DNA of 64,000 nucleotides from Gemmatimonadota bacterium (GTDB lineage Bacteria; Latescibacterota; UBA2968; UBA8231). Under the pieces are notes generated by a model. That model did no database searches. It saw only the letters and a program-made list of their open reading frames with translations, and had not been told where the DNA came from. This document shows, piece after piece, positions 15,112-60,250 of this stretch. The stretch covers positions 56,704 through 120,703 of the forward strand of contig JAYPJE010000003.1 of NCBI GenBank assembly GCA_038128265.1. Direction: 5' to 3'. The first letter of the stretch is position 1. Each line of letters opens with the position of its first letter. A program made the position numbers and the translations under genes.

Positions 15112-15248
15112 ATTAAACGGCTTGACGGCCTTCCCAAGATAGCCCTGTGCGCGCGGAGAAACAACCGAGCGTCGGTTGCTTTATACCCTCCAGATCGTAC
15201 TTTATGGACCGGCGCGCATAACCTGCACTACCTCTATCAGGAGTCGCT

Positions 15249-38719: not shown

Positions 38720-39155
38720 CTCCGCTGGTCGCTTCCTCCGCTTCGGCCTCATCGACCAGCGACCGGGCGCGGTCGCCGACGGCTATGGGCTGCGCCTGCG
38801 GGCTGCCCACGCGCTCGCCCGAACGCACGTCGAGGCGCTGCCAACTGCTATGGCGCCCCACCGACTGCTCGGCCATCAGCGCACTCAGCGGCCGCGTATC
38901 GCCTACGACCACCGCAGCTTCGGCCGGTGCCCGCACGGTGCACATATTCTCCTGCACGTGCGTGACGACGACGCGCGCTTTGACCACCTCCCAGTGCCCC
39001 AGGCTCTCACCGCTGTCGGGGTCGCGTATTTCGGCATGCTCGGCAAATACAACAAAGTCCATGCCCTCGCGCACGCCGCGCGTCAGCCCCGCATTGATTA
39101 CCAGGGTCGTATCGTCGATAATCGCCGCAACTTTTGCCTCAATTACAGTCTGCAT
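38709..39155 (-). CDS. Hypothetical protein (148 aa) with acidic C-terminal tail
   Basis: ATG with GGAG 9 nt upstream. Overlaps the LptE-like start by 11 nt. No family recognised. Confidence 0.45.
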   Translation of the reverse strand: MQTVIEAKVAAIIDDTTLVINAGLTRGVREGMDFVVFAEHAEIRDPDSGESLGHWEVVKARVVVTHVQENMCTVRAPAEAAVVVGDTRPLSALMAEQSVGRHSSWQRLDVRSGERVGSPQAQPIAVGDRARSLVDEAEAEEATSGDGE

Positions 39156-39167
39156 ATTCCACGCTCC

Positions 39168-39200
39168 AAAAAAAAACCGGCCCGCCCGTGGGCGAACCGG
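39168..39200 (-). terminator. Rho-independent terminator after the M23 peptidase gene
   Basis: The minus strand reads CCGGUUCGCC-CACG-GGCGGGCCGG, a 10-bp stem with two G-U pairs, followed by U9. Confidence 0.8.
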
Positions 39201-39221
39201 CTACAGCGTTACGCGCACTTG

Positions 39222-45489: not shown

Positions 45490-46494
45490 ATGAATCTGGA
45501 AAAGAAATCCCTGTCCGGCTACCTGCAACGCAAAAAGCTCATTACGCGCGGCACGCCTATCCGCGTGCAGACGTTGGGCGACGGCATGAAGAATCGCGTC
45601 TATTACGTCGCCGCTCCAAAGGAAGCCTGGATCGTCAAGCAGGCCCATTCACGCGTGCAGATAAAGGAGCGCTGGTGGCTCGACCGCAAGCGCATTTTTG
45701 CCGAGGATAGCTGCATTGATATTCTTCGCCAGTTTATGCCGCCGGAAATCATTCCGCAAACCGTCTTAGTCGATCGCACGGACTTCGTGTTGGTGACCAC
45801 TCCGCCGCCCGACAACGCCGTGCTGTGGGAAGACGACCTGGCCAGCGGTCGGATTGATCTGCAGATTGCCGTCCAGTGCGGCGAACTGCTGGCCACGGTG
45901 CACAACGAAACGGCTGAACACCCCGAGCTCAAGGCGATGTTCAAAGACACCAAGGCCTTCGAACAGCTGCGCATAGAGCCTCACTACGAATACGTCACCA
46001 ACACCTTTCCCGACCTTAAGAAGGTGATTGATGCGCAGACCAAGCGCCTCAAAAAGGAAACGTACTGCCTCATACTGGGCGATCTGCGACCGCGCAACGT
46101 GTGGGTCAACTCCGGCCAGCTCTACCTAGTCGACTTCGCCACCGCACACTTTGGCCACCCCGGCTTCGACCTGGCGTTCTACGCGGCCGATATGTGCGTC
46201 AAAGCCATGCAGAACAGCCTGCAGAAAGCCGCTTACTTAGAAGCAATCAACGTGTTCTGGAACGGCTATTTCAAATTGGCTTCTTACAAGGGCGTGAAGG
46301 AAATCGAAAAGCCCGCCGTACGCGACCTGGGCTGCATGCTGCTGGCAGCGACTGACGGCCGCCAGGCGGTCGAATTCGACGATCCCCACGTCGCCGGCCT
46401 TGCGCGCCGCATTGCCATGAGCCTGCTGTTCACCGAGTTGGCCACGATCGAGGACATCACCGAGTTTATCAACCGAACGCTAATCGACGGGTAG
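45490..46494 (+). CDS. APH-fold phosphotransferase, methylthioribose-kinase-like
   Basis: 334 aa. Motifs LGDGMKNRVYYV...VKQA, the catalytic-loop equivalent LILGDLRPRNVWV, and LVDFATAHFG. Confidence 0.65.
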   Translation: MNLEKKSLSGYLQRKKLITRGTPIRVQTLGDGMKNRVYYVAAPKEAWIVKQAHSRVQIKERWWLDRKRIFAEDSCIDILRQFMPPEIIPQTVLVDRTDFVLVTTPPPDNAVLWEDDLASGRIDLQIAVQCGELLATVHNETAEHPELKAMFKDTKAFEQLRIEPHYEYVTNTFPDLKKVIDAQTKRLKKETYCLILGDLRPRNVWVNSGQLYLVDFATAHFGHPGFDLAFYAADMCVKAMQNSLQKAAYLEAINVFWNGYFKLASYKGVKEIEKPAVRDLGCMLLAATDGRQAVEFDDPHVAGLARRIAMSLLFTELATIEDITEFINRTLIDG

Positions 46495-46592: not shown

Positions 46593-47348
46593 CTATGCGC
46601 CGGCAGCGGTAAACTGCGCGCGCAGATCCTCACTGCTCGACAGCACGTGCTCTACCATTGCGGTACGCGCCGCCTGCGCATCGCCGGCGCGCAGTGCACG
46701 AACGATATCCTCATGCTGCTGCAGCGACAGCCGCGCGCGATCGAGCGCGCGGTCCTCCTCCGCCAGCGAACGCTCAATCCACGCCTGCAAATAGCCGCGC
46801 GTCGCTTCGAGCAAGCTGGCCAGCAGCGCATTTTGCGTGGCCCCTGCTACCGCCAGATGAAAGCGCACGTCCGCGGCCAAAAACTGCGCTCCATCCTCCA
46901 GGGCTTCGGCCATATCCGACAGAGCCTCCTCTATCCGGCGCATATCCTCTTCTGCGGCCCGCTGTGCCGCCCAAAATGCCGTCTCCGACTCCAACATCAG
47001 GCGCGTCTCAATCAGATCGCCGACCATCTTGCGGTTAAGCAGCATACCCCACTGCAGCGCCTTTTGCACGAACTGCTGGTTGTCGCTGACAAAAGTCCCC
47101 TCGCCGACGCGGCCATCGATCACGCCCATGGCGCTCAGCGAGCGCAGCGCCTCGCGCAGCGACGAACGCCCCACGCCAAATCGCTTACACAATTCGCGTT
47201 CAGGCGGCAGGCGATCGCCCGGGCGCAGCACGTCGCGCTTGATCAGATCGACGATCTGCGCCATAATCTCTTCGCCCAGCGACGTGCGCGCTATCGGGCG
47301 GACATTAGCGGCCACTGAATTGGAAGAATCGGCGTTATTCAAATTCAC
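46593..47348 (-). CDS. GntR-family transcriptional regulator (FadR subfamily, FCD ligand domain)
   Basis: 251 aa. wHTH RLPPERELCKRFGVGRSSLREALRSLSAMGVIDGRVGEGTFV plus an all-helical C-terminal domain. Confidence 0.9.
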   Translation of the reverse strand: MNLNNADSSNSVAANVRPIARTSLGEEIMAQIVDLIKRDVLRPGDRLPPERELCKRFGVGRSSLREALRSLSAMGVIDGRVGEGTFVSDNQQFVQKALQWGMLLNRKMVGDLIETRLMLESETAFWAAQRAAEEDMRRIEEALSDMAEALEDGAQFLAADVRFHLAVAGATQNALLASLLEATRGYLQAWIERSLAEEDRALDRARLSLQQHEDIVRALRAGDAQAARTAMVEHVLSSSEDLRAQFTAAGA

Positions 47349-47418
47349 TGTACATTTCGCAAATTATTAATAATAAAATACTTGTGTGAAGTTTTTTCCG
47401 AGCAAGTATTCGTTCCAT

Positions 47419-47447
47419 TTGCAATTGGTCTGACCATCAGCTATTTT
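47419..47447 (+). promoter_or_regulatory. Candidate promoter of the corrinoid operon (TTGCAA-N17-TATTTT)
   Basis: Hexamers at 47419-47424 and 47442-47447. The spacer contains the palindrome listed next. Confidence 0.3.
47426..47436. promoter_or_regulatory. GntR/FadR-type operator palindrome TGGTCTGACCA
   Basis: Perfect palindrome TGGTC-T-GACCA matching the (T)GGT-N-ACC(A) core typical of FadR-subfamily operators. It sits between the divergent GntR gene and the operon. Confidence 0.5.
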
Positions 47448-47492
47448 GATCAAGTATAGCGCAATACGTCCTCTATCGTCAAGGGAAATGCC

Positions 47493-48131
47493 ATGGCTCT
47501 AACCCGCGATATCGGCACTCGCATCGAGCTGGTGCCCATGGATTTGCACTGCAGCAATATAACCGTTGCCCTCTACCGCCAGGATGGGGCCGAAGCACCG
47601 GCTTACCGCGTCCATACCTACAGCCAGCACCCCGATGCTCCCCAGCGCATCGAAGCGCTGCGCCAGGCGATGCAGATACTGGGCACCATGGAAGAGGCCA
47701 GCGAAGAGCTGCTGCGCTTCCCCTGTGGGCACGCCCATCAATTTGCCGTGCGCCGGCTCTTTTTGGATGCCTGCAAGCGCGATCCGTCGCTGACGCTACA
47801 GGCGCAGCCCCTGCGCATATTCGACAAGAAGGGCGACGGCCACATTGCCGTAGATAGCCTAGGCGACGGCCAGTACCGCGTGCGCGCAGAAGAAGATAGC
47901 GACGGCGTCGAGCGTCGCACGGCCACCATTGCACGCGGACTGATTCGCCTCGGCGAAATGGAAGAGACCGGCGACGACGCCAATTGCCTACACTTTGCCT
48001 GCGGCCATGCGCACGATGCCCTCATTGCCCAACTGCTGGTGCGCGCACCCAACGTGCGCGCGGCCATGCGCGAAGCCGAAGAGATGGCCCAGCGCGGTCA
48101 GCTCGTCGCCCCCAGCGCCCAGAATAATTAG
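47493..48131 (+). CDS. Hypothetical protein with an internal duplication and two CGHAH motifs
   Basis: 212 aa and the first gene of the operon. The halves align: YRV(38-40)...LGTMEE...RFPCGHAH(78-82) against YRV(128-130)...LGEMEE...HFACGHAH(170-174). No family recognised. Confidence 0.6.
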   Translation: MALTRDIGTRIELVPMDLHCSNITVALYRQDGAEAPAYRVHTYSQHPDAPQRIEALRQAMQILGTMEEASEELLRFPCGHAHQFAVRRLFLDACKRDPSLTLQAQPLRIFDKKGDGHIAVDSLGDGQYRVRAEEDSDGVERRTATIARGLIRLGEMEETGDDANCLHFACGHAHDALIAQLLVRAPNVRAAMREAEEMAQRGQLVAPSAQNN

Positions 48132-48139
48132 GAGATAGC

Positions 48140-49177
48140 ATGGCACACGTTCCCTCTATGACCAGCAAAGAGCGCGTACTCGCCGCTCTCAATCGCCAGC
48201 CCGTCGACCGCACGCCGCTGTGCAATCCGACTTCGGTAGCTACCGTCGAGCTAATGGACCTCGTCGATGCCCCTTTCCCCGAAGCCAATCGCCAACCCGA
48301 GCTCATGGCGCGCCTAGCTGCCACCGGCTACACCGAACTCGGCTTTGACACCATCATGCCCGTGTTCTCCATCATTCAGGAATCTTCCGCGCTGGGCTGT
48401 AAGATCCAGTGGGAGCAAAAGGACAACTGGCCGACGGTGCGGATGAACGAACCGATTTGGCAAACGCCCGATGATATTAACGTCCCAACCGATTTGTGCA
48501 CCCATCCCGATACCCGATGCGTCACCGACGCCATTGCCATATTGCGCAAAGAATACGGGGATGAGGTGGCCGTCATCGGCAAGACCATGGGGCCCTGGTC
48601 ACTGGGCTACCACTGCTTTGGCGTCGAACCCTTTTTGCTGATGTCGCTCGACGATCCGGGCAAGACCAAGCTCTGCTTGGATCGCATGAAGGAGATAACG
48701 GTCGAATACGGTCTGGCGCAGATCGAGGCCGGCGCCGATGCGCTGACGCTGCCCGACCATGCCACCGGCGATCTGGTCAGCGGCGAATACTACGAGCGCT
48801 ATTTACGCGACCTACACATTGAGATGGCCGAGCGCCTCCCTGTGCCAATTATTCTCCACATCTGCGGCCGCACCGTCGATCGCATGGAGTACATCGCCCA
48901 AACCGGCATGGCGGCTTTCCACTTCGACTCGAAGAATACGCCGATGGAATCGATGGACATCGTCTCAGATCGCATTGCCTTGGTCGGCAATATCAACAAT
49001 CCCGAAACGCTCTTTTCCAAAGGGCCCGACGTCGTGCGCGAAGAAGTATACCGCAACCTGGAAGCGGGCGTGCAACTCGTCGGGCCGGAGTGCGCCATAC
49101 CGCTGCAGACTTCGATTGAAAACCTAAAGGAAATACCCCGCGCCGTGCGCGATTGGCACGCCGGCATCGACCGCTAG
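48140..49177 (+). CDS. MtaA/CmuA-type (uroporphyrinogen-decarboxylase-fold) corrinoid methyltransferase
   Basis: 345 aa. N-terminal SKERVLAALNRQPVDRTP, and the Zn-ligand pattern H-x-C...C seen as ILHICGRT and GPECAIP, as in MtaA/MtbA/MtsA. Confidence 0.85.
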   Translation: MAHVPSMTSKERVLAALNRQPVDRTPLCNPTSVATVELMDLVDAPFPEANRQPELMARLAATGYTELGFDTIMPVFSIIQESSALGCKIQWEQKDNWPTVRMNEPIWQTPDDINVPTDLCTHPDTRCVTDAIAILRKEYGDEVAVIGKTMGPWSLGYHCFGVEPFLLMSLDDPGKTKLCLDRMKEITVEYGLAQIEAGADALTLPDHATGDLVSGEYYERYLRDLHIEMAERLPVPIILHICGRTVDRMEYIAQTGMAAFHFDSKNTPMESMDIVSDRIALVGNINNPETLFSKGPDVVREEVYRNLEAGVQLVGPECAIPLQTSIENLKEIPRAVRDWHAGIDR

Positions 49178-49187
49178 GAGAGAAAGC

Positions 49188-49931
49188 ATGGCAGAAATCG
49201 GCGATATTGCCAACGAGTTTATACGCGAAGAAATCGATGAATTCCTCGAGCGCGACGACGAGCGCACGCGCAATATAGAGCACTTTGCGCGCGCAAAGCC
49301 GCTGATGCAGGACATTGCCGCCGCCCTCATCGACGGCGCGCACGAAGAGGTCGACGAACTGACGCAGCAGGCGCTGGGCGAGGGCATTGAAGCGCTCGAG
49401 GTCATGGACGATGGCCTCATTGCCGGCATGGGCATCGTCGGCATTAAATTCCGCGAAAACTTTATCTTTGTTCCCGAGGTGCTGGCTTGCGCGCGCGCCA
49501 TGAAGGCCGGCATGGCCCATATCGAACCCATTCTCTCCGATTCGGGTATCGAACCCATTGGCACGGTCGTCATGGGCACGGTTAAGGGCGATCTGCACGA
49601 TATTGGAAAAAATCTCTGCATCATGATGCTGCGCGGCGCCGGCTTTGTCGTGCACGACCTCGGCGTCGACACCTCGGAAGACGAGTTTATCTCCGCTATA
49701 GAAGAGCACGGCGCCACGCTACTGGGCATGTCCGCACTGCTGACGACTACGATGCCCAATATGGGCAAGACGATTGAAGCCTTTATCGACGAAGACCTGC
49801 GCGACGATATCAAAATCATGGTCGGCGGCGCGCCTGTCACACCGGAATTTGCCGAAGATATGGGCGCTGACGGCTACGGCAAAGACGCCCTGGCCTGCGT
49901 CGAGTTGGCCAAGCAGCTGCTAAGCGAATAA
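49188..49931 (+). CDS. Corrinoid (cobalamin-binding) protein, MtaC/MetH-B12-domain-like
   Basis: 247 aa. Helical cap domain followed by a Rossmann domain with DxHxxG (GDLHDIGKN), SxL (SALLTTT) and GG (GGAPV). Confidence 0.9.
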   Translation: MAEIGDIANEFIREEIDEFLERDDERTRNIEHFARAKPLMQDIAAALIDGAHEEVDELTQQALGEGIEALEVMDDGLIAGMGIVGIKFRENFIFVPEVLACARAMKAGMAHIEPILSDSGIEPIGTVVMGTVKGDLHDIGKNLCIMMLRGAGFVVHDLGVDTSEDEFISAIEEHGATLLGMSALLTTTMPNMGKTIEAFIDEDLRDDIKIMVGGAPVTPEFAEDMGADGYGKDALACVELAKQLLSE

Positions 49932-49955
49932 CTCGCGACGGACAACGGCCACGCT

Positions 49956-51848
49956 ATGGCTCCCATAGACCCCAGCGAATACCAAAAGCGCCTCGACAAA
50001 CTGTCTTCTCTGCTGGGCGGTATCGTCCGCCACGCCGATGTGCAGTCTCAGAGTCGCTGTCCCTACAAGAACCGCCACGGCGAGTGCACCGCCCAGTTTG
50101 GCTGCCGCAACCAGCGCAAAAACGAGCAGGCAGGTGGGCCGCTGCTGTGCGTGGGCGACGATCAATTGGACTACCGCAGCGCGTGGGAAGGCATCGAACG
50201 CCCGGCTCAGCGCCCGGCCCAAGACGGCAGGGGTCGCATAACCAGCGGTGCGCATTCCTGTGTCGCGCAGAGCCGCCGCACGCTTTTTGATGCGGCCGAT
50301 CAGCTCGACGTAGCCGTGCCCACATCGTGCTATCGCACGGGCAGCTGCCACGAGTGCATCGTCGAAGTCAAACGCGGTATGGAGGCGCTCAACGCGCGCA
50401 CGCGCGAAGAGCACTTTCTGCGCGAAGACTACCGCCTGGCCTGCCAGGCCGAAGTCGTTGATGCAGACATCGACATCGAGTTCGCCCCGCTCAACCGCAC
50501 TCCGCGCATACTAACCCTGTCTACGACTCAGCCCGATGAAGTCGCTCCCCTGGTGGAGCGACGGCAGGACAAAGTCTATTTCGACGGGGAGCATATCGAC
50601 GACTATCGCGGCCGCATATTGGGCATCGCCATCGATTTGGGAACGACCACCGTAGCCATGGAGCTACTCGACTTGGAAACGGGAGAGAGCGTGCAGGTGG
50701 CCTCGTTTGAAAACCCGCAGCGTTTTGGCGGCAGCGATGTGATGAACCGCATATCCTACGACGCACAGCACCCGCGCGAGCTACGGCAGGCCATCGTCAA
50801 GGCACTCAACCGCCAAATTGCTCGCTGGTGCGCGCTCTACTCTATCCACCGACACTGCATTTACGAAGTCGTCGTCGCCGGCAATTCAACCATGCGCGAC
50901 ATCCTCTTTCGCTACGACGTCCAAGGCATAGGCCAGAGGCCCTACAAGTCGCAGGTCGAATTGGAGTTCATCGATGGCCAACGCTCTCACACCGCCCTGA
51001 GCGAAAAGACGCGCCGCCTCGGCCTGCGCGCCCATCCCAAAGCGCGCGTCTACGGTTTACCGCTCATCGCAAGTCATGTTGGAGCGGATGCAGCCGCCGA
51101 CCTGTGTGCCACCCGACTCGACGCTGAAGCGGATGCCGCCCTGTTAATCGACGTCGGCACCAATACCGAAGTCGTGGCCATCTACAACGGGCGCATGGTC
51201 GCCGCCTCTTCTCCGGCTGGACCGGCATTCGAGGGCGGCACCGTCACCTACGGAATGCCCGGCTACGAAGGCGCCATCGAACGCCTGCGCTGGAACGGGA
51301 CGGCTTGGGACTACAAGACCATTGGCGATATCGCCCCCCAAGGCATCTGCGGCTCGGGCCTAGTCGATCTCCTCGCAGAGCTCCGACGCCACGATCTCAT
51401 GTCACCCAAGGGCGCCTTTGCCCAGCGGCAAAAGGAGATCACCGTAGTGGCCGACGCCGGCATCACGTTTTCGCGCCTCGACGCCTCCAACCTAGCGCAG
51501 GCCAAAGCCGCCAATTACTGCGGCCAATACATCGTGCTGCGCGCGCTTGGCCTCGCTCCAGCTCAGGTAAAAAAACTCTACCTGGCCGGCGGATTCGCCC
51601 ACTACATCGATGCTCAGGCGGCCATAGATATCGGCTTTTTGGCACCGGTTCCCGTAGAGCGGATAGAAAAAGTCGGCAACGCCTCGCTGCAGGGCGCGCG
51701 CGATGTGCTGCTCTCAAAAAACAAGCGCCGCCGCTTAGAAGAGTTGGTCCGTCGCATCGAACACATCGAGCTCGAAACGACGCCCGATTTTTTTGAGCTC
51801 TTCGTCGACGGCTGCCAGTTCAAACCCATGCCCTCCGAGCTGAACTGA
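49956..51848 (+). CDS. RACo/RamA-type reductive activator of corrinoid proteins (2Fe-2S ferredoxin + ASKHA ATPase) with an extra Cys-rich N-terminal extension
   Basis: 630 aa. Ferredoxin CYRTGSCHEC...LACQ begins near aa 90. ASKHA motif IAIDLGTTTV and a C-terminal DUF4445-like region. Aa 1-90 carry C-x9-C-x5-C-x16-C. Confidence 0.85.
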   Translation: MAPIDPSEYQKRLDKLSSLLGGIVRHADVQSQSRCPYKNRHGECTAQFGCRNQRKNEQAGGPLLCVGDDQLDYRSAWEGIERPAQRPAQDGRGRITSGAHSCVAQSRRTLFDAADQLDVAVPTSCYRTGSCHECIVEVKRGMEALNARTREEHFLREDYRLACQAEVVDADIDIEFAPLNRTPRILTLSTTQPDEVAPLVERRQDKVYFDGEHIDDYRGRILGIAIDLGTTTVAMELLDLETGESVQVASFENPQRFGGSDVMNRISYDAQHPRELRQAIVKALNRQIARWCALYSIHRHCIYEVVVAGNSTMRDILFRYDVQGIGQRPYKSQVELEFIDGQRSHTALSEKTRRLGLRAHPKARVYGLPLIASHVGADAAADLCATRLDAEADAALLIDVGTNTEVVAIYNGRMVAASSPAGPAFEGGTVTYGMPGYEGAIERLRWNGTAWDYKTIGDIAPQGICGSGLVDLLAELRRHDLMSPKGAFAQRQKEITVVADAGITFSRLDASNLAQAKAANYCGQYIVLRALGLAPAQVKKLYLAGGFAHYIDAQAAIDIGFLAPVPVERIEKVGNASLQGARDVLLSKNKRRRLEELVRRIEHIELETTPDFFELFVDGCQFKPMPSELN

Positions 51849-51856
51849 GCACGTCT

Positions 51857-53464
51857 ATGAGCAAATCACACCCCCCTCGGCGCTACTCGGGCGCCTGGCA
51901 GAAAGAGAGCCTGCGCAACCTGCTGCGAGACGACGCAGAATTCGTGCACGTCGTCGAGCTGGTCACCTCGCGCGGCGTAATGGCAGACAAAGACGGAAGG
52001 CGCATCCTATCGCTGGCGCGCCGCCTCTGCGAACACCCGGACGTGCACGCCCTGAGCATCACCGACAACCCCGGCGGCAACGCCATGATCAGCGCCGACA
52101 CACTCGGCACCGACCTGCTCTCGCGCGGCCAAGAAGTCATCATCCATATCTCCTGCAAGGATTGGAATCGCAACGCCCTGCAGGGGCGAGCATGGCAGCT
52201 GGCCAGCGAGGGCTTTGATAACGTGCTGTGCCTTTCCGGAGACTACCCGACCAGCGGCTACCGAGGAGTCGCCAGCGGCGTATTTGACATCGACTCCATT
52301 GGCCTGCTGCAGATGTTTAGCGAACTCAACGCCGGCCTGTCCATTGCCGGCCGCAGCAAGCCGCGACGCTTGAAAAAAACCCACTTTTTACTGGGTGCGG
52401 CGACCAACAACCACAAGCGCTACGAACGCGAGGTCATGCCGCAGTATTTCAAGCTGGCACAAAAGGTGCAAAACGGCGCCGACTTTATCATCAGTCAGAT
52501 TGGTTACGACACCCGCAAGCAGGACGAACTCCTCCGCTATATGCGACTGCGGCACATCGACGTGCCGGTCATAGCCAATGTCTTCGTGCTCAGCGCTGGG
52601 GTGGCGCGCTACTTTCACGGCGGCCACATCCCCGGCGTAGAGGTTACCGATCGCCTGCTGGAACTGTGCGAGCAACAGGCCCAGTCTCCCGACAAGGGCA
52701 AGGCGTTCTTTCTGGAATTAGCCGCTCAACAGTGCGCCATTGCGCGCGGGTTGGGCTATCGGGGCGTCTATCTGGGCGGCCATCTACAATACGGCGACTA
52801 CGAAAAAATCATCGCCCTATCGCAGCGCTACGCACCCGACGATTGGCGCGACTTTGCGCGCCAGATCGACTTTTCCCATCCCGATGAGTTCTACTTTTTT
52901 GACCGCGATCCGTCGAGTGGCCTGAGCAGCGATGCAATTAATCCCGCCTACCTGGCGTCCAAGGATCACACGGCACGCAGGCGATTGCAGCGCGAAGTAT
53001 CCAGCGCCTATAAGCTCAGCCGCATTGTACACGAACACCTCTTTGCTCCGCACAGCCGCGGCTTTCAGGCCGGAAAAAAATTGGCCGCAGCACTAGAGCA
53101 CAGCCCCAATGCCCAACGCTTTCTGCACGTCGTAGAGCAGGCGACCAAAGTTCCTCTTTTCGACTGCCGCGACTGCGGCGACTGCTCGCTGCCCGACATC
53201 GCCTATTTATGTCCCGAATCACAGTGCGTAAAAAACCAGCGTAACGGGCCGTGCGGCGGAACGCGGCAAGGACTGTGTGAAGTAGGCGATAAGGAATGCA
53301 TCTGGGCGCGCGCCTACGAACGTTTGAAAGCGTATGGGCAGGAGGAACACATGCTCGAACGCCCTGCCGTCATTAAAGACGGTGCGCTGCACGGAACCAG
53401 TGCCTGGCTCAACACCTTTGCAGGTCGCGATCACCACGGACGCGACGGGGAGAACGCACCGTGA
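51857..53464 (+). CDS. metF: Methylenetetrahydrofolate reductase fused to a Cys-rich MTHFR C-terminal (MetV-like) domain
   Basis: 535 aa. MTHFR barrel (VVELVTSRG...ITDNPGG...CLSGD) and the C-terminal motif CRDCGDCSLPDIAYLCPESQCVKNQRNGPCGG. Confidence 0.82.
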   Translation: MSKSHPPRRYSGAWQKESLRNLLRDDAEFVHVVELVTSRGVMADKDGRRILSLARRLCEHPDVHALSITDNPGGNAMISADTLGTDLLSRGQEVIIHISCKDWNRNALQGRAWQLASEGFDNVLCLSGDYPTSGYRGVASGVFDIDSIGLLQMFSELNAGLSIAGRSKPRRLKKTHFLLGAATNNHKRYEREVMPQYFKLAQKVQNGADFIISQIGYDTRKQDELLRYMRLRHIDVPVIANVFVLSAGVARYFHGGHIPGVEVTDRLLELCEQQAQSPDKGKAFFLELAAQQCAIARGLGYRGVYLGGHLQYGDYEKIIALSQRYAPDDWRDFARQIDFSHPDEFYFFDRDPSSGLSSDAINPAYLASKDHTARRRLQREVSSAYKLSRIVHEHLFAPHSRGFQAGKKLAAALEHSPNAQRFLHVVEQATKVPLFDCRDCGDCSLPDIAYLCPESQCVKNQRNGPCGGTRQGLCEVGDKECIWARAYERLKAYGQEEHMLERPAVIKDGALHGTSAWLNTFAGRDHHGRDGENAP

Positions 53465-54489
53465 ATATACCCGCTATCGACAAACCCTTTATCGTCATTG
53501 GCGAAAACGTCCACACCACCCGCGTCCTTTCGCGCAAGGGCAAGCTCATTGCCTCCGATGCCGAGGGGCGAGAGGGCATTCGCTATCGCGACACGAACAA
53601 CGCACGGCGCTTTTTACCCATCCCAGAAGACGTAAAGGGGACGCGCGACTACGAAGAGGGCCGTATCAAGCACCTCAAAATAGCCGTGCGCGAAGCGATG
53701 GCGGGCAGCGCAGATGCACTCGACTACATCGCTCGGCAGGTGCAGCGCCAAGAGCAGGCCGGCGCCGACTTTCTCGACCTCAATGTCGACGAGCTATCCA
53801 TTCGCGTCGAGGAACAGCAAGAGGCCATGCGCTGGCTGGTCGGCGCCGTGCATTCCATGAGCACGCTCCCCCTCTCAATAGACTCGTCCAATAGCGAAAT
53901 ACTGCGCGCCGGCTTGGAGTGCTGTGCAGATCACGCGGAGCGGCCGCTGCTCAACTCGGCATCACTCGAGCGTTTAGACGGCCTCGATATGGCGCGCGCA
54001 TTCAATGCGCAGGTCGTCATCACAGCCTCAGGTGAATCCGGCATGCCCGATGACGTCGAAGAGCGTATGACGCATGCCATGCGCATGGTCGAAGAGGCCG
54101 ACCGACGCTCCATACCGCTATCCGACCTATTTATCGACCCACTGATCTTTCCCATCTCTGTCGATGGCCGCTATGGCCAGCACGCTTTTGGCGCCATAGC
54201 CCAGCTGCGCGCGCGACTGGGCAACGACGTGCACATAACTGGCGGCTTTTCCAACGTGTCCTTCGGCCTGCCATGCCGACAGCTCATCAACGACGTCTTC
54301 CTGATACTCGCCGTCGAAGCCGGTGCCGACAGCGCCATTATCGATCCGACGAGCAGCTCCCTGAGCGAGGTCTTTTCCATCGACCGCAGTGCGTCAACTT
54401 TCCAGCTGGCCGAAGACGTGCTGCTGGGCAGAGACGAGTACTGCGCCCGTTTTATCCGCGCCTATCGCAAGGGGGAACTGACGGCCTAA
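53461..54489 (+). CDS. Pterin-binding methyltetrahydrofolate:corrinoid methyltransferase (AcsE/MtrH/MetH pterin-domain-like)
   Basis: 342 aa. Motifs IVIGENVHTT, ...FLDLNVDE... and ...PLSIDSS.... The GTG start overlaps the metF stop (GTGA). Confidence 0.85.
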   Translation: MNIPAIDKPFIVIGENVHTTRVLSRKGKLIASDAEGREGIRYRDTNNARRFLPIPEDVKGTRDYEEGRIKHLKIAVREAMAGSADALDYIARQVQRQEQAGADFLDLNVDELSIRVEEQQEAMRWLVGAVHSMSTLPLSIDSSNSEILRAGLECCADHAERPLLNSASLERLDGLDMARAFNAQVVITASGESGMPDDVEERMTHAMRMVEEADRRSIPLSDLFIDPLIFPISVDGRYGQHAFGAIAQLRARLGNDVHITGGFSNVSFGLPCRQLINDVFLILAVEAGADSAIIDPTSSSLSEVFSIDRSASTFQLAEDVLLGRDEYCARFIRAYRKGELTA

Positions 54490-54563
54490 GCGCCGCATAC
54501 GGCAGCCCCTGCAGACTCCCGCCGCGCTGGCTTTTTCCATCCCTTTGCATAGATTATTTCTCT

Positions 54564-55562
54564 ATGATACCATTTATTGAGCGCATCGCCGAAGAGCATC
54601 CCCTGCTGTACGATGGGGGGTTTGGCTCCCAGCTATTTGCCCGCGGCATCGAGTTGACCAACAGCACACTGGCCAACGAAGCACATCCCGACGCCGTCGT
54701 AGAAATCCATCGCACCTATATCGAAGCCGGCGCCGATGCCATTGGCACCAATACGTTTGTCGCCTCGGAACTGCATTTAGAAATGGCCGGCAAAGATCCG
54801 GCTTCGGCCGGTCAACTAGCCACGCGTGCAGCTCAGCTGGCGCGCCGCGCCGTCGAGGAGAGCGGCCGCGAAGTCTATGTCGGCGGATCCATTGGCCCCT
54901 CCCCCGGCGCCATCGAATCAGATGCCGGCGACACCACCTTTGGCATTGCCGACGCCAACGTCCGCGACGCCCACGCGCGCATCGTCGACGCGCTGGTCGA
55001 AGGGGGCGTCGACTTTTTTGCCATCGAAACTCAATTTTCTGCCAAAGAGGCAGCCATAGCCTGCAATATTGCCCGTAAGGCGGGGCTGCCAATCGCCATC
55101 AACCTGACGCTCAAGTACACCAAAGATCGAAAAACAGGCGTCGTCACCTACAAGACCGACTGGGGTCACTCACCGGCAGATCTGCTTGACATCCTCGCCT
55201 CCGGAGAATTTTCTGACGGAGATAATCTGCTCGACCACGTACACCTACTCGGCCTCAACTGCGGGGCCGAAACGCGCCGCAGCGAGCACACCGGTATGGC
55301 CTATGCCATCTGCGGCAGCGAGCAGATAGGGCAGGCACTGCAGGCGCGCGGTCTGTCCAAGCGCATTATGACCTATCCCAACGCCGGCATGCCGCAGCTC
55401 GATAGCGAACACCGAACTACCTATTCGCAGACGCCGCAGGACATGGCCGCGGATATCTCCGACCTAATCGACAGCGGCGCCTATTTCATCGGTGGCTGCT
55501 GCGGCACAACGCCCGATCACATCCGCGCCTTTCGCCGGGCCATCGACGGGCATGCAGCGTAG
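54564..55562 (+). CDS. Stand-alone homocysteine S-methyltransferase (MetH Hcy-binding module)
   Basis: Start set to the ATG at 54564. Motif LLYDGGFGSQL, with Zn ligands in LGLNCGAE and GGCCGTTPDHIRAF. Confidence 0.88.
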   Translation: MIPFIERIAEEHPLLYDGGFGSQLFARGIELTNSTLANEAHPDAVVEIHRTYIEAGADAIGTNTFVASELHLEMAGKDPASAGQLATRAAQLARRAVEESGREVYVGGSIGPSPGAIESDAGDTTFGIADANVRDAHARIVDALVEGGVDFFAIETQFSAKEAAIACNIARKAGLPIAINLTLKYTKDRKTGVVTYKTDWGHSPADLLDILASGEFSDGDNLLDHVHLLGLNCGAETRRSEHTGMAYAICGSEQIGQALQARGLSKRIMTYPNAGMPQLDSEHRTTYSQTPQDMAADISDLIDSGAYFIGGCCGTTPDHIRAFRRAIDGHAA

Positions 55563-55565
55563 GCC

Positions 55566-55850
55566 ATGATCCACTATCAGGTGCTCTACTGGCGCGATAT
55601 ACCGGCGCAAATAAAAGTCTACGCCGGGCGCCGTCCCACTTCACACGCCCTAGCATCGCGCTTTCAGGTAGCCATCGACCGCATCGCCATGCACGAAGGA
55701 CTGACCGGCACCGAGGCCTATCTCGACCAGTGGCAATGGTCAGACAAACGCCCGTATGAAGGCGATGCAGAAGGGGCAGCGGCCGTCTTAATTAGCCAGT
55801 TAGAGCGCGAGGGCGATGCGCAGCTAGCCGCACGCAAAGAATCGCCGTGA
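55566..55850 (+). CDS. Small protein of the family annotated 'virulence factor', which accompanies split methionine synthase genes
   Basis: 94 aa. The N-terminus MIHYQVLYWRDIPAQIKV matches my memory of that family's YWRDIPAQ signature. Assigned from memory only. Confidence 0.55.
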   Translation: MIHYQVLYWRDIPAQIKVYAGRRPTSHALASRFQVAIDRIAMHEGLTGTEAYLDQWQWSDKRPYEGDAEGAAAVLISQLEREGDAQLAARKESP

Positions 55851-57736
55851 GCACCTTTGAAAAACGCTACGACGTGCTCGTCGTAGGCGGCGGTCATGCC
55901 GGCACCGAGGCCGCTCTGGCCGCAGCGCGCATGGGCGCAGAGACGCTGCTGTTGACGATGAATCTCGACACGGTTGGCCAGATGTCGTGCAACCCGGCCA
56001 TCGGCGGCATCGGCAAGGGACACATGGTTAAGGAGATCGACGCACTCGGCGGGCAAATGGCGGTTAATATCGACCGCACGGGCATCCAGTTTCGCCGCCT
56101 GAATACCAGCCGTGGACCCGCCGTGCGCGCCTCGCGCGCCCAAGCCGACAAAAAGGACGACCAGTTCGAGCTGAAGTTTGCCTGCGAACAGCATGCACAC
56201 CTCGACCTGCGCCAGGGCCTGATGGAGTCGCTGCACATCTCTGACGGACGCGTGCAGGGAGTCGGTGTCAAAGGCGGCATAACGTATTTAGCGCACAGCG
56301 TCATTCTCACCACCGGCACCTTTCTCCGCGGCAAGATCCACGTAGGCGACTTTTCCTACAGCGCCGGGCGGGCGGGTGAGACGTCGGCAGAGAGAGCCTC
56401 GGAGGGACTGGCTGCTCTCGGCTTTGATATCGGGCGCCTAAAGACGGGCACGCCGCCGCGCATCAATGGACGCACGCTGGATTTTGACAGCATGGACATA
56501 CAGCCTGGAGACGACCCGCCGCGTCCATTCTCCTATGCCGTTGAGCGCATTCAGCAAGAGCAAATGCCCTGCTGGGTGACCTATACGAATGCCGGCACCC
56601 ATCAGCTCATCGAAGAAAATCTAAATCGCTCGGCCATGTACAGCGGTCGCATCGAAGGCATCGGTCCGCGCTACTGCCCCTCAATCGAAGACAAGGTCGT
56701 GCGCTTTGCCGATAAGGAGCGCCACCAGATTTTTGTCGAACCGGAGGGCCGCCGCACGCTCGAGTACTATATCAACGGCCTGTCGATGAGCCTACCCGAG
56801 GAACTGCAGACCGGCATCGTGCGCTCGCTTCCCGGGCTAGAACGAGCCGAGATCATGCGCCCGGCCTATGCGGTCGAATACGACTATGCGCCGCCCACTC
56901 AGCTCTATCCCCACCTCGAGACCAAGCGCGTAGAGAATCTGTTTTTTGCGGGTCAAATAAACGGGACGACGGGCTACGAGGAAGCCGGAGCGCAGGGCCT
57001 AATCGCCGGCATTAACGCCGTGCTCAAGGTGCGCGGCGAAGATCCCTTTGTACTGGGGCGCGCCGACGCCTACATCGGCGTGCTCATTGACGACCTCGTC
57101 ACCAAGGGCACGCAGGAGCCCTACCGCATCTTCACTTCGCGCGCCGAACACCGCCTGCTGCTGCGCGAGGACAACGCCGACTATCGCCTGATGGAATTCG
57201 GGCGCGCCTTTGGCCTGGTAGAGGACGCCATATGGCAAAAATATCAGGACAAGCGCCGCGCAGTCGATGCCGAATTAGAGCGCCTGGCCAATACGCGTCT
57301 GCGGCCGTCCGATAGGGTGGGTGAGGTCTTTGCCGAAGCGGGCACCGCGCCGCTTAGAGAAGCCGCAGCGCTGGTCGACATCCTGCGCCGCCCCGAGCTA
57401 AACTATCACCATATCGAATTGCTCTGCCCGCCCGATGTGCGCCTTTCGCACGACGCAGCCGAGCACGTGGAAGCCGAAGTCAAGTACGACGGCTATATCA
57501 AGCGCCAGCATACCCAGGTTGACAAGCTCAAGCGCCTCGAGTCCATGCGCATTCCCGCGGACTTTGACTTCGCCGATCCCGCATTGAACCTGTCTACTGA
57601 GGGGCGGCAAAAACTAGCCCACATTCGTCCGCAGACCCTTGGCCAAGCGGCGCGCGTATCCGGCGTTTCGCCGGCCGACGTCTCGTCGCTCATGGTGCTA
57701 CTGCACGCGCACGCCGCGCGCACGGCGACCGGCTGA
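55847..57736 (+). CDS. mnmG: tRNA uridine-5-carboxymethylaminomethyl(34) synthesis enzyme MnmG (GidA)
   Basis: 629 aa. FAD motif VVGGGHAGTEAA, full-length match. The GTG start overlaps the preceding stop (GTGA). Confidence 0.96.
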   Translation: MSTFEKRYDVLVVGGGHAGTEAALAAARMGAETLLLTMNLDTVGQMSCNPAIGGIGKGHMVKEIDALGGQMAVNIDRTGIQFRRLNTSRGPAVRASRAQADKKDDQFELKFACEQHAHLDLRQGLMESLHISDGRVQGVGVKGGITYLAHSVILTTGTFLRGKIHVGDFSYSAGRAGETSAERASEGLAALGFDIGRLKTGTPPRINGRTLDFDSMDIQPGDDPPRPFSYAVERIQQEQMPCWVTYTNAGTHQLIEENLNRSAMYSGRIEGIGPRYCPSIEDKVVRFADKERHQIFVEPEGRRTLEYYINGLSMSLPEELQTGIVRSLPGLERAEIMRPAYAVEYDYAPPTQLYPHLETKRVENLFFAGQINGTTGYEEAGAQGLIAGINAVLKVRGEDPFVLGRADAYIGVLIDDLVTKGTQEPYRIFTSRAEHRLLLREDNADYRLMEFGRAFGLVEDAIWQKYQDKRRAVDAELERLANTRLRPSDRVGEVFAEAGTAPLREAAALVDILRRPELNYHHIELLCPPDVRLSHDAAEHVEAEVKYDGYIKRQHTQVDKLKRLESMRIPADFDFADPALNLSTEGRQKLAHIRPQTLGQAARVSGVSPADVSSLMVLLHAHAARTATG

Positions 57737-57759: not shown

Positions 57760-60078
57760 CTAAAAGTGTAGCCGAACGCTCGTGCCAATCTGGCGCGGAT
57801 CTCCGTAGCTCACATAGAGTTTGTCACTATAAGCCGGCGGCTCCAAGCCAAAGTAAAAACCGCGCACGGCATAGCGCTCGTCCAGTGCGTTGCTGCACCA
57901 CAGCGTCACGGCCCATCCAGCGCGTTCGTAGCCCATGCTCGCATTGACGAGCTGGTAGGCGTCAGCGCGCTCGTCGTGGCTATCCGAAAAGTAAAATCCG
58001 TCGACAAACGACCACGCGGCGCGTGCAAAGGCACCCACAGGATGCTCGTATTCGCCCCCGACGCGCGCATTCCACTGCGGGGCGTGTGCGGCGGCGCGCC
58101 CACCCAACTGCTGGCGCTGACCGCCTGCAACATCGAACGCATAGGGATCCACGCGCGTGTTCAGGTAGGACAGCGAAGCAAATGCGTTTAAATTGGGCAG
58201 CAGTCGGTACTGACCCTCTGCTTCAATGCCGCTGTTGCGTCCCGAAGCGGCGTTCGCCGTGAAGTAGAAAAAGCTGTTGGGATCGCCCGGCGTCTGCTGG
58301 CTTGATAGGCTGACCTGCTGCCCATCGCGCAGGGCATGGAAGGCAATAAGCTCAATGCGGTAGCGGCTGGTCGAGAGGCGATAGCCCGCTTCTACGTTGA
58401 GCATGTATTCGGGAGCATAGGGTCGGTTCTCCGCGGCCAAATACGGGTGCTGATTAATCCCCCCCGCGCGATAGCCACGCGCAGCGGCCACGTAGGCGTT
58501 TTCTCCCCTACGCCCCTGCCAGCTGAGCGCAACTTTGCCGCCGGGCAGCCACTGTCCCACGTCGTAGCGCACATCCTCTCCCCCGCTGTTGGTCTGGCCG
58601 CTGTAATCTATTGTGCTGCGTTCGAAACGCGCGTTAAGCGTAAGCTCCCAAACCGCACTGAGCGGACGTTTCCACTGACCATAGAGTGCGAAGTTGCCCA
58701 TGTTATAGCGCGCCTGCAGATCGCTCGCCGCGCCGCCGAATAGGTAACCCGTAGCGTCGTCCTCTTCGCGCAGCGCGCGCGCATACAGGCCGACCAATGC
58801 ACGCTCCCCTCTGAGCCGCACTTCTTGGCTCAGGCTCGTGCGCTGGCGCAGGGTGCGGTCAAAAAAGTCGTAATGCCAGCCCTCTACTTGCGGATCAAAA
58901 CCGTACGGATCGCCCGCCCAATAGGCGTCGTGTCCCCAATCCCCATCGTAGCTGTAGTCCAAGTCGGTCTGCGCATAGGTGCTGATCGATAGCAGGTCAA
59001 CGCCTGTGCGCAGCGCTTTCTCAGCGCGCAGCGCTAGCGCGCTGGTCACCTGATGGTCGTCGCCCGGTCGGTCGGAATAGGTCGTCAACCGGCGGTTGTT
59101 GTCTGGCGACCACATATCGTAGCCGTTGTCCCCGTCGGCGCGAAACAGCGTCGCTTTGAGCAACAACCCGCTTGACGCAGCATAGCGCGCCTTGAGGCGC
59201 AGCAACCCCTCGCGGCGGCGGTTGCTATCGTCGACGCCCAGATAGGCATTGTCGCGAAACCCGTTTGACGCCGCCCGTTGGTAGCCAGCGCGCAGCGCAA
59301 AACGATCGGTGATGGGCGCATTGATCACGCCTTCCGCGCGCAGGAGTCCATCGCCTCCCACGGAAAAACTCACCGCGCGCCTCGCTTCTGAAGAAGGCTC
59401 AGCTGATTCGATGTTAATCAATCCCGCCAGGGCGTTGGCGCCAAACACGCTCGACTGCGGCCCTTTAAATACCTCTACCTGCTGTAGATCAAAGAGCGCC
59501 CCGGTGCCCAGTCCGCTCATGTCGATACCGTCGACGACAAAGCCGACGGAGAAGTTGGGGGCGCCCTCTCCCGCATACTGGCTGCGCTCGCCGATGCCGC
59601 GCACCTGGAAGTAGCGCGGCCGTGCCGTTCCACCAGCCCAGTGTACATTGGGCACGGCCTGCACGGCGTCTTGCAGATGTTGCCCTCCATCCCTCCGTAC
59701 CTGCTCGCCGCGCACCACGCTGATACCAGCCGCTACCTCGCTCTGCGATTCGGCGCGCAATCCGCCGATGACTATAACCTCTTGGGCTTGTAGCACGGCG
59801 GCCACCAACCCAATGCGCAGCGACTCGTCGTCCCGGCGCAACACCCGAATAGCCCCCTCGTAGCCATAGCGTGTAAAGCGCAGCGTATCGCCGACCGCGG
59901 CCTGGACGACAAAGCCGCCGGCAGCATCGCTGCTGGACATCCACTGGCCCGCACTTATCTGCACCTCTTCCAGCGGTATCCCCGTCTCGGCATCGACCAC
60001 CCGACCGCGCACCTCTTCCGCCTCGCAAAGACCGACGGAAGCGACCCACAGAACAAAAAAAATACTGCGCAACCCCAT
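57760..60078 (-). CDS. TonB-dependent receptor with N-terminal carboxypeptidase-regulatory-like domain
   Basis: Start set to the ATG at 60078, with GGGAGGAG at 60084-60091. Signal peptide, a CarbopepD_reg-like segment VRGRVVDAETGIPLEEVQI, a plug domain, a beta-barrel and C-terminal ...VRLHF. Confidence 0.9.
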   Translation of the reverse strand: MGLRSIFFVLWVASVGLCEAEEVRGRVVDAETGIPLEEVQISAGQWMSSSDAAGGFVVQAAVGDTLRFTRYGYEGAIRVLRRDDESLRIGLVAAVLQAQEVIVIGGLRAESQSEVAAGISVVRGEQVRRDGGQHLQDAVQAVPNVHWAGGTARPRYFQVRGIGERSQYAGEGAPNFSVGFVVDGIDMSGLGTGALFDLQQVEVFKGPQSSVFGANALAGLINIESAEPSSEARRAVSFSVGGDGLLRAEGVINAPITDRFALRAGYQRAASNGFRDNAYLGVDDSNRRREGLLRLKARYAASSGLLLKATLFRADGDNGYDMWSPDNNRRLTTYSDRPGDDHQVTSALALRAEKALRTGVDLLSISTYAQTDLDYSYDGDWGHDAYWAGDPYGFDPQVEGWHYDFFDRTLRQRTSLSQEVRLRGERALVGLYARALREEDDATGYLFGGAASDLQARYNMGNFALYGQWKRPLSAVWELTLNARFERSTIDYSGQTNSGGEDVRYDVGQWLPGGKVALSWQGRRGENAYVAAARGYRAGGINQHPYLAAENRPYAPEYMLNVEAGYRLSTSRYRIELIAFHALRDGQQVSLSSQQTPGDPNSFFYFTANAASGRNSGIEAEGQYRLLPNLNAFASLSYLNTRVDPYAFDVAGGQRQQLGGRAAAHAPQWNARVGGEYEHPVGAFARAAWSFVDGFYFSDSHDERADAYQLVNASMGYERAGWAVTLWCSNALDERYAVRGFYFGLEPPAYSDKLYVSYGDPRQIGTSVRLHF

Positions 60079-60102
60079 ATATACTCCTCCCACTCTGCAC
60101 AT

Positions 60103-60138
60103 AAAAAAACCGCCGCCCAGCACGAGGTGGGAAGCGGT
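60103..60138 (-). terminator. Riboswitch expression-platform terminator
   Basis: The minus strand reads CCGC-UU-CCCA-CCUCGUGC-UGGG-CG-GCGG followed by U7. It lies between the TPP aptamer and the receptor RBS. Confidence 0.65.
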
Positions 60139-60159
60139 AGCAGCATGCAGCCAGCGCGC

Positions 60160-60238
60160 TCCGTTTCCCTACGCTGGCACGATCCAGTTCAGGTTCTAAG
60201 GGTTTTATCTCAGGCTCGCACGAGCCACCCCCAACGGA
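60160..60238 (-). promoter_or_regulatory. TPP (THI-box) riboswitch aptamer
   Basis: The minus strand reads UCCGUU-GGGGUGGCUCGUGCGAGCCUGAGAUAAAACCCUUAGAACCUGAACUGGAUCGUGCCAGCGUAGGGAA-ACGGA. It matches the conserved GGGGUGC...GCUGAGA...ACCC...ACCUGA.CUGGAU.AUGCCAGCGUAGGGAA core, with a 6-bp P1 stem. Confidence 0.92.
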
Positions 60239-60250
60239 TACTGTTCGGAA

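Follow-up and report, generated by a model that had tools for sequence, protein, structure and literature searches.

A cobalamin methyl-transfer operon with a UroD-fold methyltransferase, an orphan partner protein and split methionine synthase modules in a Gemmatimonadota bacterium

Analysis of a 64-kb stretch of DNA from a Gemmatimonadota bacterium (GTDB lineage Bacteria; Latescibacterota; UBA2968; UBA8231; GenBank assembly GCA_038128265.1, contig JAYPJE010000003.1, positions 56,704 to 120,703 of the forward strand; hereafter the window) revealed, at positions 46593-57736, a divergent GntR/FCD regulator gene followed by eight co-directional genes and mnmG. The locus almost certainly encodes a corrinoid methyl-transfer system with ATP-dependent reactivation. 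Comparison with related loci revealed that its conserved unit consists of four genes, which encode an orphan protein (open reading frame 1, ORF1), a methyltransferase of the UroD fold (UroD), a corrinoid protein (CP) and a RACo/RamA-type activase (RACo), and that the MetF-MetV, pterin, homocysteine (Hcy) and PF13769 genes are variable add-ons. We lean towards reading the locus as a modular hub for cobalamin-based methyl transfer, controlled by a GntR/FCD repressor, in which UroD would load the carrier from a methyl-thioether; like every function proposed here, this is derived from homology, motifs and gene neighbourhood.

Parts of this picture are already known, namely the shared-carrier concept (2025), RamA-reactivated split MetH (2018) and MtaA-like clusters in anaerobic bacteria (2023), and the merged-system model in the original prediction for this DNA had already been published (PMC12478193; split MetH, PMC5764234). 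What is new is the core formed by ORF1 and a UroD of the MtaA/CmuA family, common in sponge symbionts and deep-ocean SAR202. In the literature searched we found neither the ORF1-UroD core nor ORF1 itself described, nor any account of the system in SAR202, Poribacteria, Latescibacterota or Gemmatimonadota. The features of the locus, in window coordinates, are:

46593..47348, minus strand: GntR/FCD (FadR-subfamily) transcription factor, divergent (Pfam GntR 3.1e-19, FCD 3.4e-26)
47426..47436, no strand assigned: predicted GntR operator, palindrome TGGTCTGACCA, 57 nucleotides (nt) 5′ of ORF1
47493..48131, plus strand: ORF1, orphan protein of 212 amino acids (aa) with internal duplication (no Pfam or NCBIfam match)
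48140..49177, plus strand: UroD-fold corrinoid methyltransferase, MtaA/CmuA family (URO-D 3e-64)
49188..49931, plus strand: corrinoid carrier protein (CP), cap and Rossmann domains (B12-binding_2 4.9e-21, B12-binding 5.7e-28)
49956..51848, plus strand: RACo/RamA-type ATP-dependent reductive activase (Fer2, Raco_middle, RACo_C_ter)
51857..53464, plus strand: MetF-MetV fusion (MTHFR 3.7e-13, DUF5981 (MTHFR_C) 4.3e-26)
53461..54489, plus strand: pterin-binding methyl-tetrahydrofolate (methyl-THF):corrinoid methyltransferase, MeTr/AcsE-like, MtgD-like (Pterin_bind 5.8e-23)
54564..55562, plus strand, ATG start at 54564: stand-alone Hcy S-methyltransferase, MtgE-like (S-methyl_trans 8.3e-56)
55566..55850, plus strand: small PF13769 ('Virulence_fact') protein, 94 aa (PF13769 9.7e-15)
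55847..57736, plus strand: mnmG, tRNA U34 cmnm5 modification (TIGR00136, 868 bits)

A conserved four-gene core and a predicted operator

A scan of one genome per species yielded 419 stretches encoding a relative of ORF1, the best 80 of which were examined; as these are the loci most similar to ORF1, the counts that follow are not an unbiased census. Their genomes are metagenome-assembled and carry the labels Latescibacterota, Gemmatimonadota, Poribacteria, Planctomycetota, Moanabacter, and Beta-, Gamma- and Alphaproteobacteria; many originate in sponge holobionts and some in pelagic samples. Synteny was tabulated by tblastn for the 69 species-level loci whose downstream sequence extends for at least 9.5 kb, and genes in related loci were called simply as the longest ORFs, which accounts for conservation counts such as 69/81. 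Near ORF1, UroD was found in 67 of the 69 loci, CP and RACo in 61 each and a GntR homologue in 41, followed by MetF-MetV (34), Hcy (33), pterin (22) and PF13769 (21), while the complete eight-gene set occurred in about 10. The genes are thus co-conserved, as had been proposed, although not as one fixed unit of eight: the core is ORF1-UroD-CP-RACo, and the eight-gene operon is one of several arrangements. Others include GntR-ORF1-UroD-CP-RACo-MetFV (18 loci), ORF1-UroD-CP-RACo-Hcy (12 loci, or 17 counting those that also have PF13769 or GntR) and, in Poribacteria, ORF1-UroD alone. The closest relative of the window, labelled Gemmatimonadota, shares the same 20-kb gene order at 88-97% protein identity.

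Within the core, UroD and CP are 70-97% identical across at least six phyla (pairwise identity across loci: UroD median 81%, minimum 72%; CP median 81%, minimum 70%), and the medians for RACo, Hcy and ORF1 are 66%, 63% and 55%. The conservation of UroD and CP would reflect either unusually strong purifying selection, with many interaction surfaces, or paired horizontal movement. A divergent ORF1 subfamily (26-32% identity) belongs to SAR202/Chloroflexota, whose DNA is 33% G+C (window, about 60%) and whose UroD and CP remain 64-65% and 64% identical to those of the window. The SAR202 operon runs PF13769-Hcy-ORF1-UroD-CP-(79-aa ORF)-RACo, with the Hcy role filled by a different PF02574 subfamily (26% identity), and on a TARA contig (L093) the genes of an Hcy-ORF1-UroD-pterin array overlap. 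The pairing of ORF1 with UroD, and its tie to homocysteine methylation, are thus old and no accident of one lineage.

In several related loci, DUF433/HTH_3 (toxin-antitoxin-like) or unrelated genes are inserted between operon genes (L011, 14617-16267; L092, 1638-2480; and L044), indicating that the operon tolerates interruptions. Recurrent neighbours were also considered as clues to the substrate and set aside, as they amounted to no more than synteny within lineages (lipA, APH, GT87, protease) and inserted genes (toxin-antitoxin, DUF433).

The predicted target of the regulator lies in the stretch GGTCTGACC, whose palindrome TGGTCTGACCA is found a single time in the window, where 0.03 occurrences would be expected by chance. 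We surveyed all 80 related loci (1.49 Mb in total) and found GGTC[A/T]GACC 5′ of ORF1 in every one of the 46 loci with an adjacent divergent GntR gene, in four more where that gene is displaced or lies beyond the contig end, and in none of the 30 loci without GntR nearby. Its distance from ORF1 is about 60-225 nt, mostly about 60-125 nt, and 50 of its 62 occurrences across the survey are at this upstream position. This co-occurrence of palindrome and regulator is strong comparative evidence for reading GGTC[A/T]GACC as the predicted GntR operator, in agreement with the original proposal. The regulator itself is nearest to the NCBIfam models NanR, LldR and PdhR, every one below its cut-off; since these sense carboxylic acids, the similarity gives a hint at the type of inducer that the GntR/FCD protein may recognize.

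The UroD-fold enzyme and its partner ORF1

UroD scored above the cut-offs of the MtaA/CmuA family models (TIGR01463, 249.7 bits against 235.4; NF004889, 257 against 244) and below those of the MtaA/MtbA equivalogs (NF040654, 228.9 against 400; NF041608, 203.9 against 600). The MtaA-type assignment made earlier thus stands at the level of the family and fails for MtaA proper. HemE, the identity that the earlier assignment had set against itself, is ruled out by a score of 70.3 bits with the hemE model (TIGR01464), far under its cut-off of 302.95. In a phmmer search of the PDB, the best sequence match was Methanosarcina MtaA (4ay7, E 7.5e-50), followed by true UroDs with E values near 1e-11; at E<=1e-3 the search picked up no UroD structure of the O-demethylase or haloalkane type. 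When the 6-residue offset of chain 4ay7_A is subtracted, H240, C242 and C318 of UroD align with the MtaA zinc ligands His240, Cys242 and Cys319, and all three residues are conserved in the orthologues and in the SAR202 copies.

In the UroD superfamily, a His-Cys-Cys zinc site belongs to the S/Se-methyltransferases, whereas O-demethylases replace the cysteines (Kountz & Balskus, PMC10418091); CdmB, the chloromethane methyltransferase I (MT-I), is without zinc (PMC13222342). Together, the zinc site and the resemblance to MtaA point to a methyl-thioether (or methyl-selenide) in preference to methoxy-aromatics, and with reasonable probability UroD would act on sulfur or selenium. Of the methyl donors first suggested, the methyl-sulfur type therefore gains, while methoxy-aromatics are disfavoured. 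The accompanying statement that no known substrate-specific MT-I family is present was misleading, because the UroD superfamily itself contains MT-I enzymes: MtvB, OdmB, VdmB, MtoB, CdmB and CmuA (PMC13222342) and, further, MtpA, a methylmercaptopropionate (MMPA):cob(I)alamin methyltransferase (10.1101/548461). As thioether-to-Co(I) transfer is uphill (MtpA paper, 10.1101/548461), UroD may transfer its methyl group in either direction, and we give even weight to UroD being the loading enzyme.

ORF1 had been listed simply as an unknown protein with a duplicated CGHAH motif. It indeed belongs to no described family: 15 members matched no Pfam family even at E<=10, which rules out a remote DUF1638 or other Pfam member, and NCBIfam gave no match either. 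The internal duplication is also real, as judged by comparison of the N- and C-terminal halves with hhalign (Prob 97%, E 6.6e-11). What had been missed is its partnership with UroD, whose gene lies directly 3′ of ORF1 in 67 of the 69 loci and is paired with it in the distant SAR202 subfamily as well; ORF1 is probably a functional partner of the UroD enzyme. A confident AlphaFold model (predicted local distance difference test, pLDDT, 85; predicted template-modelling score, pTM, 0.81) consists of two beta3-alpha-beta2-alpha repeats, each of which carries a C-x3-H motif at a strand-helix junction (C78/H82 and C170/H174, conserved in orthologues), and the two motifs could together form a Cys2His2 metal site. 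The C-terminal tail, R-G-x-L-x-A-P-S-x-Q, is conserved and was modelled with low confidence. Foldseek found no match to this fold in the PDB at E<=1e-3, and a sequence search of the PDB returned noise only.

The ORF1 family comprises 612 clusters. Its 275 representatives among 1.84 billion proteins are stand-alone proteins of about 210 aa, with no genuine fusion to a known domain among them; two hits were longer, and one of these we read as a frameshift fusion with UroD. Among plasmids (PLSDB), ORF1 had no match and UroD only matches below 28% identity. The secondary-structure order predicted for the ORF1 halves, beta3-alpha-beta2-alpha, is also that of the PF13769 protein; the two were considered as relatives and the idea was dropped, as hhalign found no sequence-profile similarity between them.

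Carrier, activase and methionine synthase modules

Gene order, spacings, domains and motifs were all borne out by coordinates, profile searches and orthologue alignment, with successive spacings from ORF1 to the PF13769 gene of 8, 10, 24 and 8 nt, a 4-nt overlap, 74 nt and 3 nt. The fold of the 74-nt gap before the Hcy gene was no better than that of shuffled sequence (z = -0.37), giving no sign of an internal terminator there, and a promoter/terminator scan of the locus gave scores at chance level.

The pterin enzyme, CP, the Hcy enzyme and RACo would constitute a split methionine synthase without the S-adenosylmethionine (AdoMet) domain, and it is highly likely that the locus contains a working one. 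A stand-alone PF02574 protein with zinc cysteines (C233, C312 and C313, each retained in 30-31 of 32 sequences) is accompanied by a PF00809 protein, a carrier with PF02607 and PF02310, and a RamA-like activase, and a profile search found no match to the AdoMet reactivation domain (PF02965) in any cluster protein. The predicted replacement of that domain by a RACo/RamA-type activase (Fer2, Raco_middle and RACo_C_ter) was thus confirmed. A DUF1638 (PF07796) partner, the remaining hallmark of such systems, had no match in the cluster proteins or the other scanned window ORFs, although its gene may lie elsewhere in the genome. Neither metH, metE nor B12 genes were found among the other ORFs scanned in the window, and the window contains no cobalamin or SAM riboswitch.

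CP carries the motifs D135-x-H137-x-x-G140, SxL and GG of the base-off/His-on type, all conserved in orthologues, and scores nearer the MtgC, MtbC and pyl-corrinoid models than MetH, while remaining under the MtgC cut-off (204.8 vs 370). The pterin module likewise scores higher with PRK07535 (205 bits) than with metH (112 bits). As both proteins are nearer methylotrophic families, the set looks assembled from methylotrophy modules rather than derived from a broken-up MetH. The MetF-MetV fusion matches the MTHFR half of PRK08645 at 6.8e-37, the cysteines of its Cys-rich domain are conserved in 36 of 39 sequences, and it is predicted to be a methyl-THF/methylene-THF oxidoreductase.

RACo matched an AcsV-like model at 2.9e-85, below the cut-off, and its 2Fe-2S cysteines are present and conserved in orthologues. 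It also has a highly conserved N-terminal module outside any Pfam domain (residues 1-80, 49956-50195), with four cysteines (C35, C44, C50 and C65) in the pattern R-C-P-Y-K-N ... C-T-A-x-F-G-C ... C ... D-Y-R-S-A-W. In SAR202 this module is the separate 79-aa ORF (L096, 12492-12731), and it may represent an additional metal or Fe-S site specific to the system. In L011, a 110-aa ORF lies between CP and a shorter RACo and may be an equivalent of the module.

The homologues of the PF13769 protein are all stand-alone, of 60-105 aa (mostly about 90), and in related loci their gene always adjoins an Hcy or pterin gene. The AlphaFold model (pLDDT 92) had no fold match in the PDB at E<=1e-3.

Direction of methyl transfer and related systems

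In the mechanism that we propose, a single CP would cycle between Co(I) and CH3-Co(III), and the activase would rescue Co(II) with ATP and an electron, replacing the AdoMet domain of MetH. Three methyltransferases would dock on this carrier, namely UroD with ORF1, the pterin methyl-THF enzyme and the Hcy enzyme; that they share it is suggested by analogy with MtgBCDE. UroD and ORF1 would act as the MT-I and move the methyl group of X-S-CH3 onto CP, with MMPA, dimethyl sulfide (DMS), methanethiol or a related compound as candidates, after which the methyl group would pass either to homocysteine, giving methionine, or to THF. MetF-MetV would oxidize methyl-THF into the one-carbon (C1) pool, and the pterin module may also run in the biosynthetic direction. 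Any part played by ORF1 and the PF13769 protein is conjectural.

The nearest precedent is found in Ruegeria pomeroyi, where MtgC (corrinoid) and MtgD (pterin) are each required for methionine synthesis and also when the bacterium grows on glycine betaine (PMC12478193), and where MtgB loads the carrier, MtgE methylates homocysteine, MetF2 oxidizes methyl-THF and RamA reactivates (Mausz et al. 2025, PNAS, PMC12478193). In Phaeobacter inhibens, a split MetH works with a RamA-like activase and needs DUF1638 (Price et al. 2018, PMC5764234). As in both, corrinoid, pterin and Hcy proteins are separate here and are served by a RamA/RACo-type activase without an AdoMet domain. The Ruegeria system further resembles ours in having a MetF paralogue beside the pterin gene, a carrier common (in ours putatively) to methionine synthesis and catabolic demethylation, aerobic marine hosts, and corrinoid and pterin modules nearer methylotrophic families than MetH. 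This genetic precedent supports the original idea of one carrier with several methyltransferases and a MetF link to the C1 pool. Every role of the MtgBCDE system is present at the locus except the MttB-type loader and DUF1638. The loader here is a UroD/MtaA-type zinc protein with ORF1 in place of the MttB-superfamily (pfam06253) MtgB, a domain found neither in the cluster nor in the window. Unlike the Ruegeria and Phaeobacter systems, the cluster is one operon under GntR/FCD, without DUF1638, with MetF fused to a MetV-type domain and with PF13769, and its hosts are Gemmatimonadota/Latescibacterota, Poribacteria and SAR202, not Alphaproteobacteria.

Thioether-fed loading by UroD also resembles what is known from methanogens. 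Like MtaA, MtbA, MtsA and MtpA, UroD passes the family models, keeps the MtaA zinc positions and works beside a separate corrinoid protein and a RamA-type activase, and MtsA and MtpA show that the family is able to load corrinoid from methyl-thioethers. It differs from MtaA and MtbA in falling below their equivalog cut-offs (229 vs 400; 204 vs 600) and in occurring in bacteria not known to make coenzyme M (CoM), and it differs from the methanogen CoM methyltransferases in being always paired with ORF1 and coupled to THF and homocysteine rather than CoM. Type 1 mlp clusters share the proposed methyl-sulfur/methyl-selenium role and often have no THF methyltransferase in the cluster; they contain at least two distinct Mlp paralogues (Mlp2, Mlp3) and occur in obligate anaerobes only (PMC10418091). 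In contrast, the window cluster has a single URO-D gene, as does each related locus, together with ORF1 and homocysteine and THF modules, in hosts from lineages regarded as aerobic. In further support of the hub, ORF1-UroD also neighbours Hcy and pterin genes in the divergent SAR202 subfamily.

Several observations weigh against the methyl-thioether hub. The uphill loading of Co(I) from a thioether means that UroD might instead be a methyl-accepting MT-II thiol methylase, like MtaA. Some remote members of the ORF1 family have lost the Cys/His motifs, so that the putative metal site is not universal. The SAR202 operon stands amid argS, gatB and cysS, with no regulator, pterin or MetF gene, a housekeeping context that a constitutive biosynthetic role fits better than inducible catabolism. 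In addition, no transporter or downstream catabolic gene recurs near the related loci to offer a clue to the substrate.

The first of these points leads to the alternative that UroD is an acceptor-side methylase of thiols or selenols, comparable to MtaA with CoM, serving biosynthesis, detoxification or volatilisation, which we consider unlikely. The methyl group would then be drawn from methyl-THF by the pterin module, or from methionine by a reversed Hcy module, and go to a small thiol, sulfide, selenide or an ORF1 cysteine. MtaA, the closest solved relative, works in that direction, methylation of a thiolate by CH3-Co(III) is favourable compared with the reverse, and ClMlp2 methylates selenide and sulfide from methylcobalamin in vitro (PMC10418091). 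The conserved Cys/His residues of ORF1 would suit an acceptor, though their motifs are, as noted, not universal. However, many ORF1-UroD-CP-RACo loci have only the Hcy module, or no second methyltransferase within 10 kb, so that nothing nearby could load the carrier, and MetF-MetV together with a substrate-type GntR/FCD regulator fit catabolism better.

The SAR202 context also bears on a second alternative, that ORF1 and UroD are integral to a new type of methionine synthase, acting in corrinoid priming or re-methylation (as a stand-in for the AdoMet domain or DUF1638) or supplying methyl groups from an endogenous donor; we regard it as very unlikely. The PF13769-Hcy-ORF1-UroD-CP-RACo order among argS, gatB and cysS, with no regulator, agrees with it, as do the overlapping Hcy-ORF1-UroD-pterin genes of the TARA contig, the very high conservation of UroD and CP, which resembles that of housekeeping machinery, and the absence from the cluster of DUF1638, needed in Phaeobacter. 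Yet only 33 of the 69 loci have an Hcy gene within 10 kb, several lineages (Poribacteria, a betaproteobacterium) carry ORF1-UroD, accompanied or not by CP-RACo, with no Hcy gene in the vicinity, and RACo alone suffices for reactivation in known systems. Nor was a precedent found for a UroD-family enzyme that uses a pterin: MtoA, considered as one, proved to be MtrH-like, and we therefore give little weight to the use of methyl-THF by UroD.

Least likely of the three is an anaerobe-type O-demethylase (MtvB/OdmB-like) or methyl-halide (CmuA/CdmB-like) system, in which UroD would be the MT-I for methoxy-aromatics or for chloromethane, the pterin enzyme the MT-II, RACo the activase and the Hcy module merely co-located. 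Sponges are rich in methoxylated and halogenated aromatics, UroD exceeds the cut-off of the 'MtaA/CmuA family' model, and the layout of MT-I, corrinoid protein, MT-II and activase with metF, the methyl group passing to THF, matches O-demethylase, Cdm and cmu clusters. The zinc ligands of UroD and the modular distribution argue against this: both cysteines, replaced by carboxylates or lost in O-demethylases (PMC10418091), are kept here in the S/Se-type site, whereas CdmB is without zinc; only MtaA and true UroDs were matched in the phmmer PDB search at E<=1e-3; CmuA is a methyltransferase-corrinoid fusion, while the two are separate genes here; the cluster has no folD or purU; and a pterin module is near only 22 of the 69 loci. 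None of the cmu, O-demethylase and Cdm systems has a homocysteine module, ORF1 or PF13769.

Returning to the methyl-thioether hub, its most specific form is one that we offer tentatively, as possible and well short of probable. ORF1-UroD-CP-RACo would be the cobalamin-dependent methyl-sulfur demethylase of aerobic marine bacteria, that is, the 'DMS methyltransferase' and/or the enzyme that converts MMPA to 3-mercaptopropionate, passing methyl groups from thioethers derived from dimethylsulfoniopropionate (DMSP) directly to homocysteine (in effect a methionine synthase independent of folate) as well as to THF. ORF1 would serve as a subunit of new fold, required to handle the substrate, and the system would operate in the globally abundant SAR202 and in dominant sponge symbionts. 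A DMS methyltransferase was reportedly postulated by Visscher and Taylor in 1993. As of 2019, the cobalamin-dependent enzyme of aerobes was still unidentified (PMC6548844). We found no later identification in the literature searched. To our knowledge, the MMPA-demethylating enzyme of aerobes has likewise not been identified. The cluster is thus a concrete candidate for DMS/MMPA demethylation in aerobes that can be tested in vitro. It would take the principle of a shared B12 carrier beyond the MttB-type betaine enzymes of Alphaproteobacteria, to several uncultured or hard-to-culture phyla and to an enzyme that is MtaA-type and probably directed at sulfur, and it adds to the known cobalamin demand in the ocean and in sponge holobionts. 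The compact and very highly conserved four-gene core, which includes a protein family without annotation or known fold, is a clear experimental target.

At the downstream end, the predicted extent to 57736 takes in mnmG, which the predicted gene list had left off. The start of mnmG overlaps the end of the PF13769 gene by 4 nt, and the two are probably co-transcribed. mnmG adjoins the operon in only 10 of the 69 related loci and is a lineage-specific neighbour, not a component of the system. MnmEG takes a one-carbon unit from methylene-THF, so co-transcription of mnmG with a THF-C1 operon may be no accident.

Beside the cluster, a TonB-dependent receptor gene (57760-60242, minus strand) is preceded by a thiamine pyrophosphate (TPP) riboswitch (60149-60242, 73 bits), the only riboswitch in the window, so that the receptor probably imports a thiamine-related compound and is not BtuB, the receptor for cobalamin. 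On the other side, an APH-family kinase gene (45490-46494, plus strand) lies between lipA and the GntR gene, a position kept in 36 related loci. The N-terminal 140 residues of this kinase weakly match S-methyl-5-thioribose kinase (TIGR01767, 54 bits vs a cut-off of 275); a link to methylthio compounds is possible and unsupported. Elsewhere in the window, four ORFs of 200-267 aa had no Pfam match (11104-11907, 11846-12508, 14515-15285 and 38680-39282). The window further encodes a GH109-like glycosidase, a sulfatase and a CBM9-domain protein (12655-13926, 18454-19869 and 60519-61649), which fit a heterotroph degrading sulfated glycans, as reported for sponge- and marine particle-associated bacteria.

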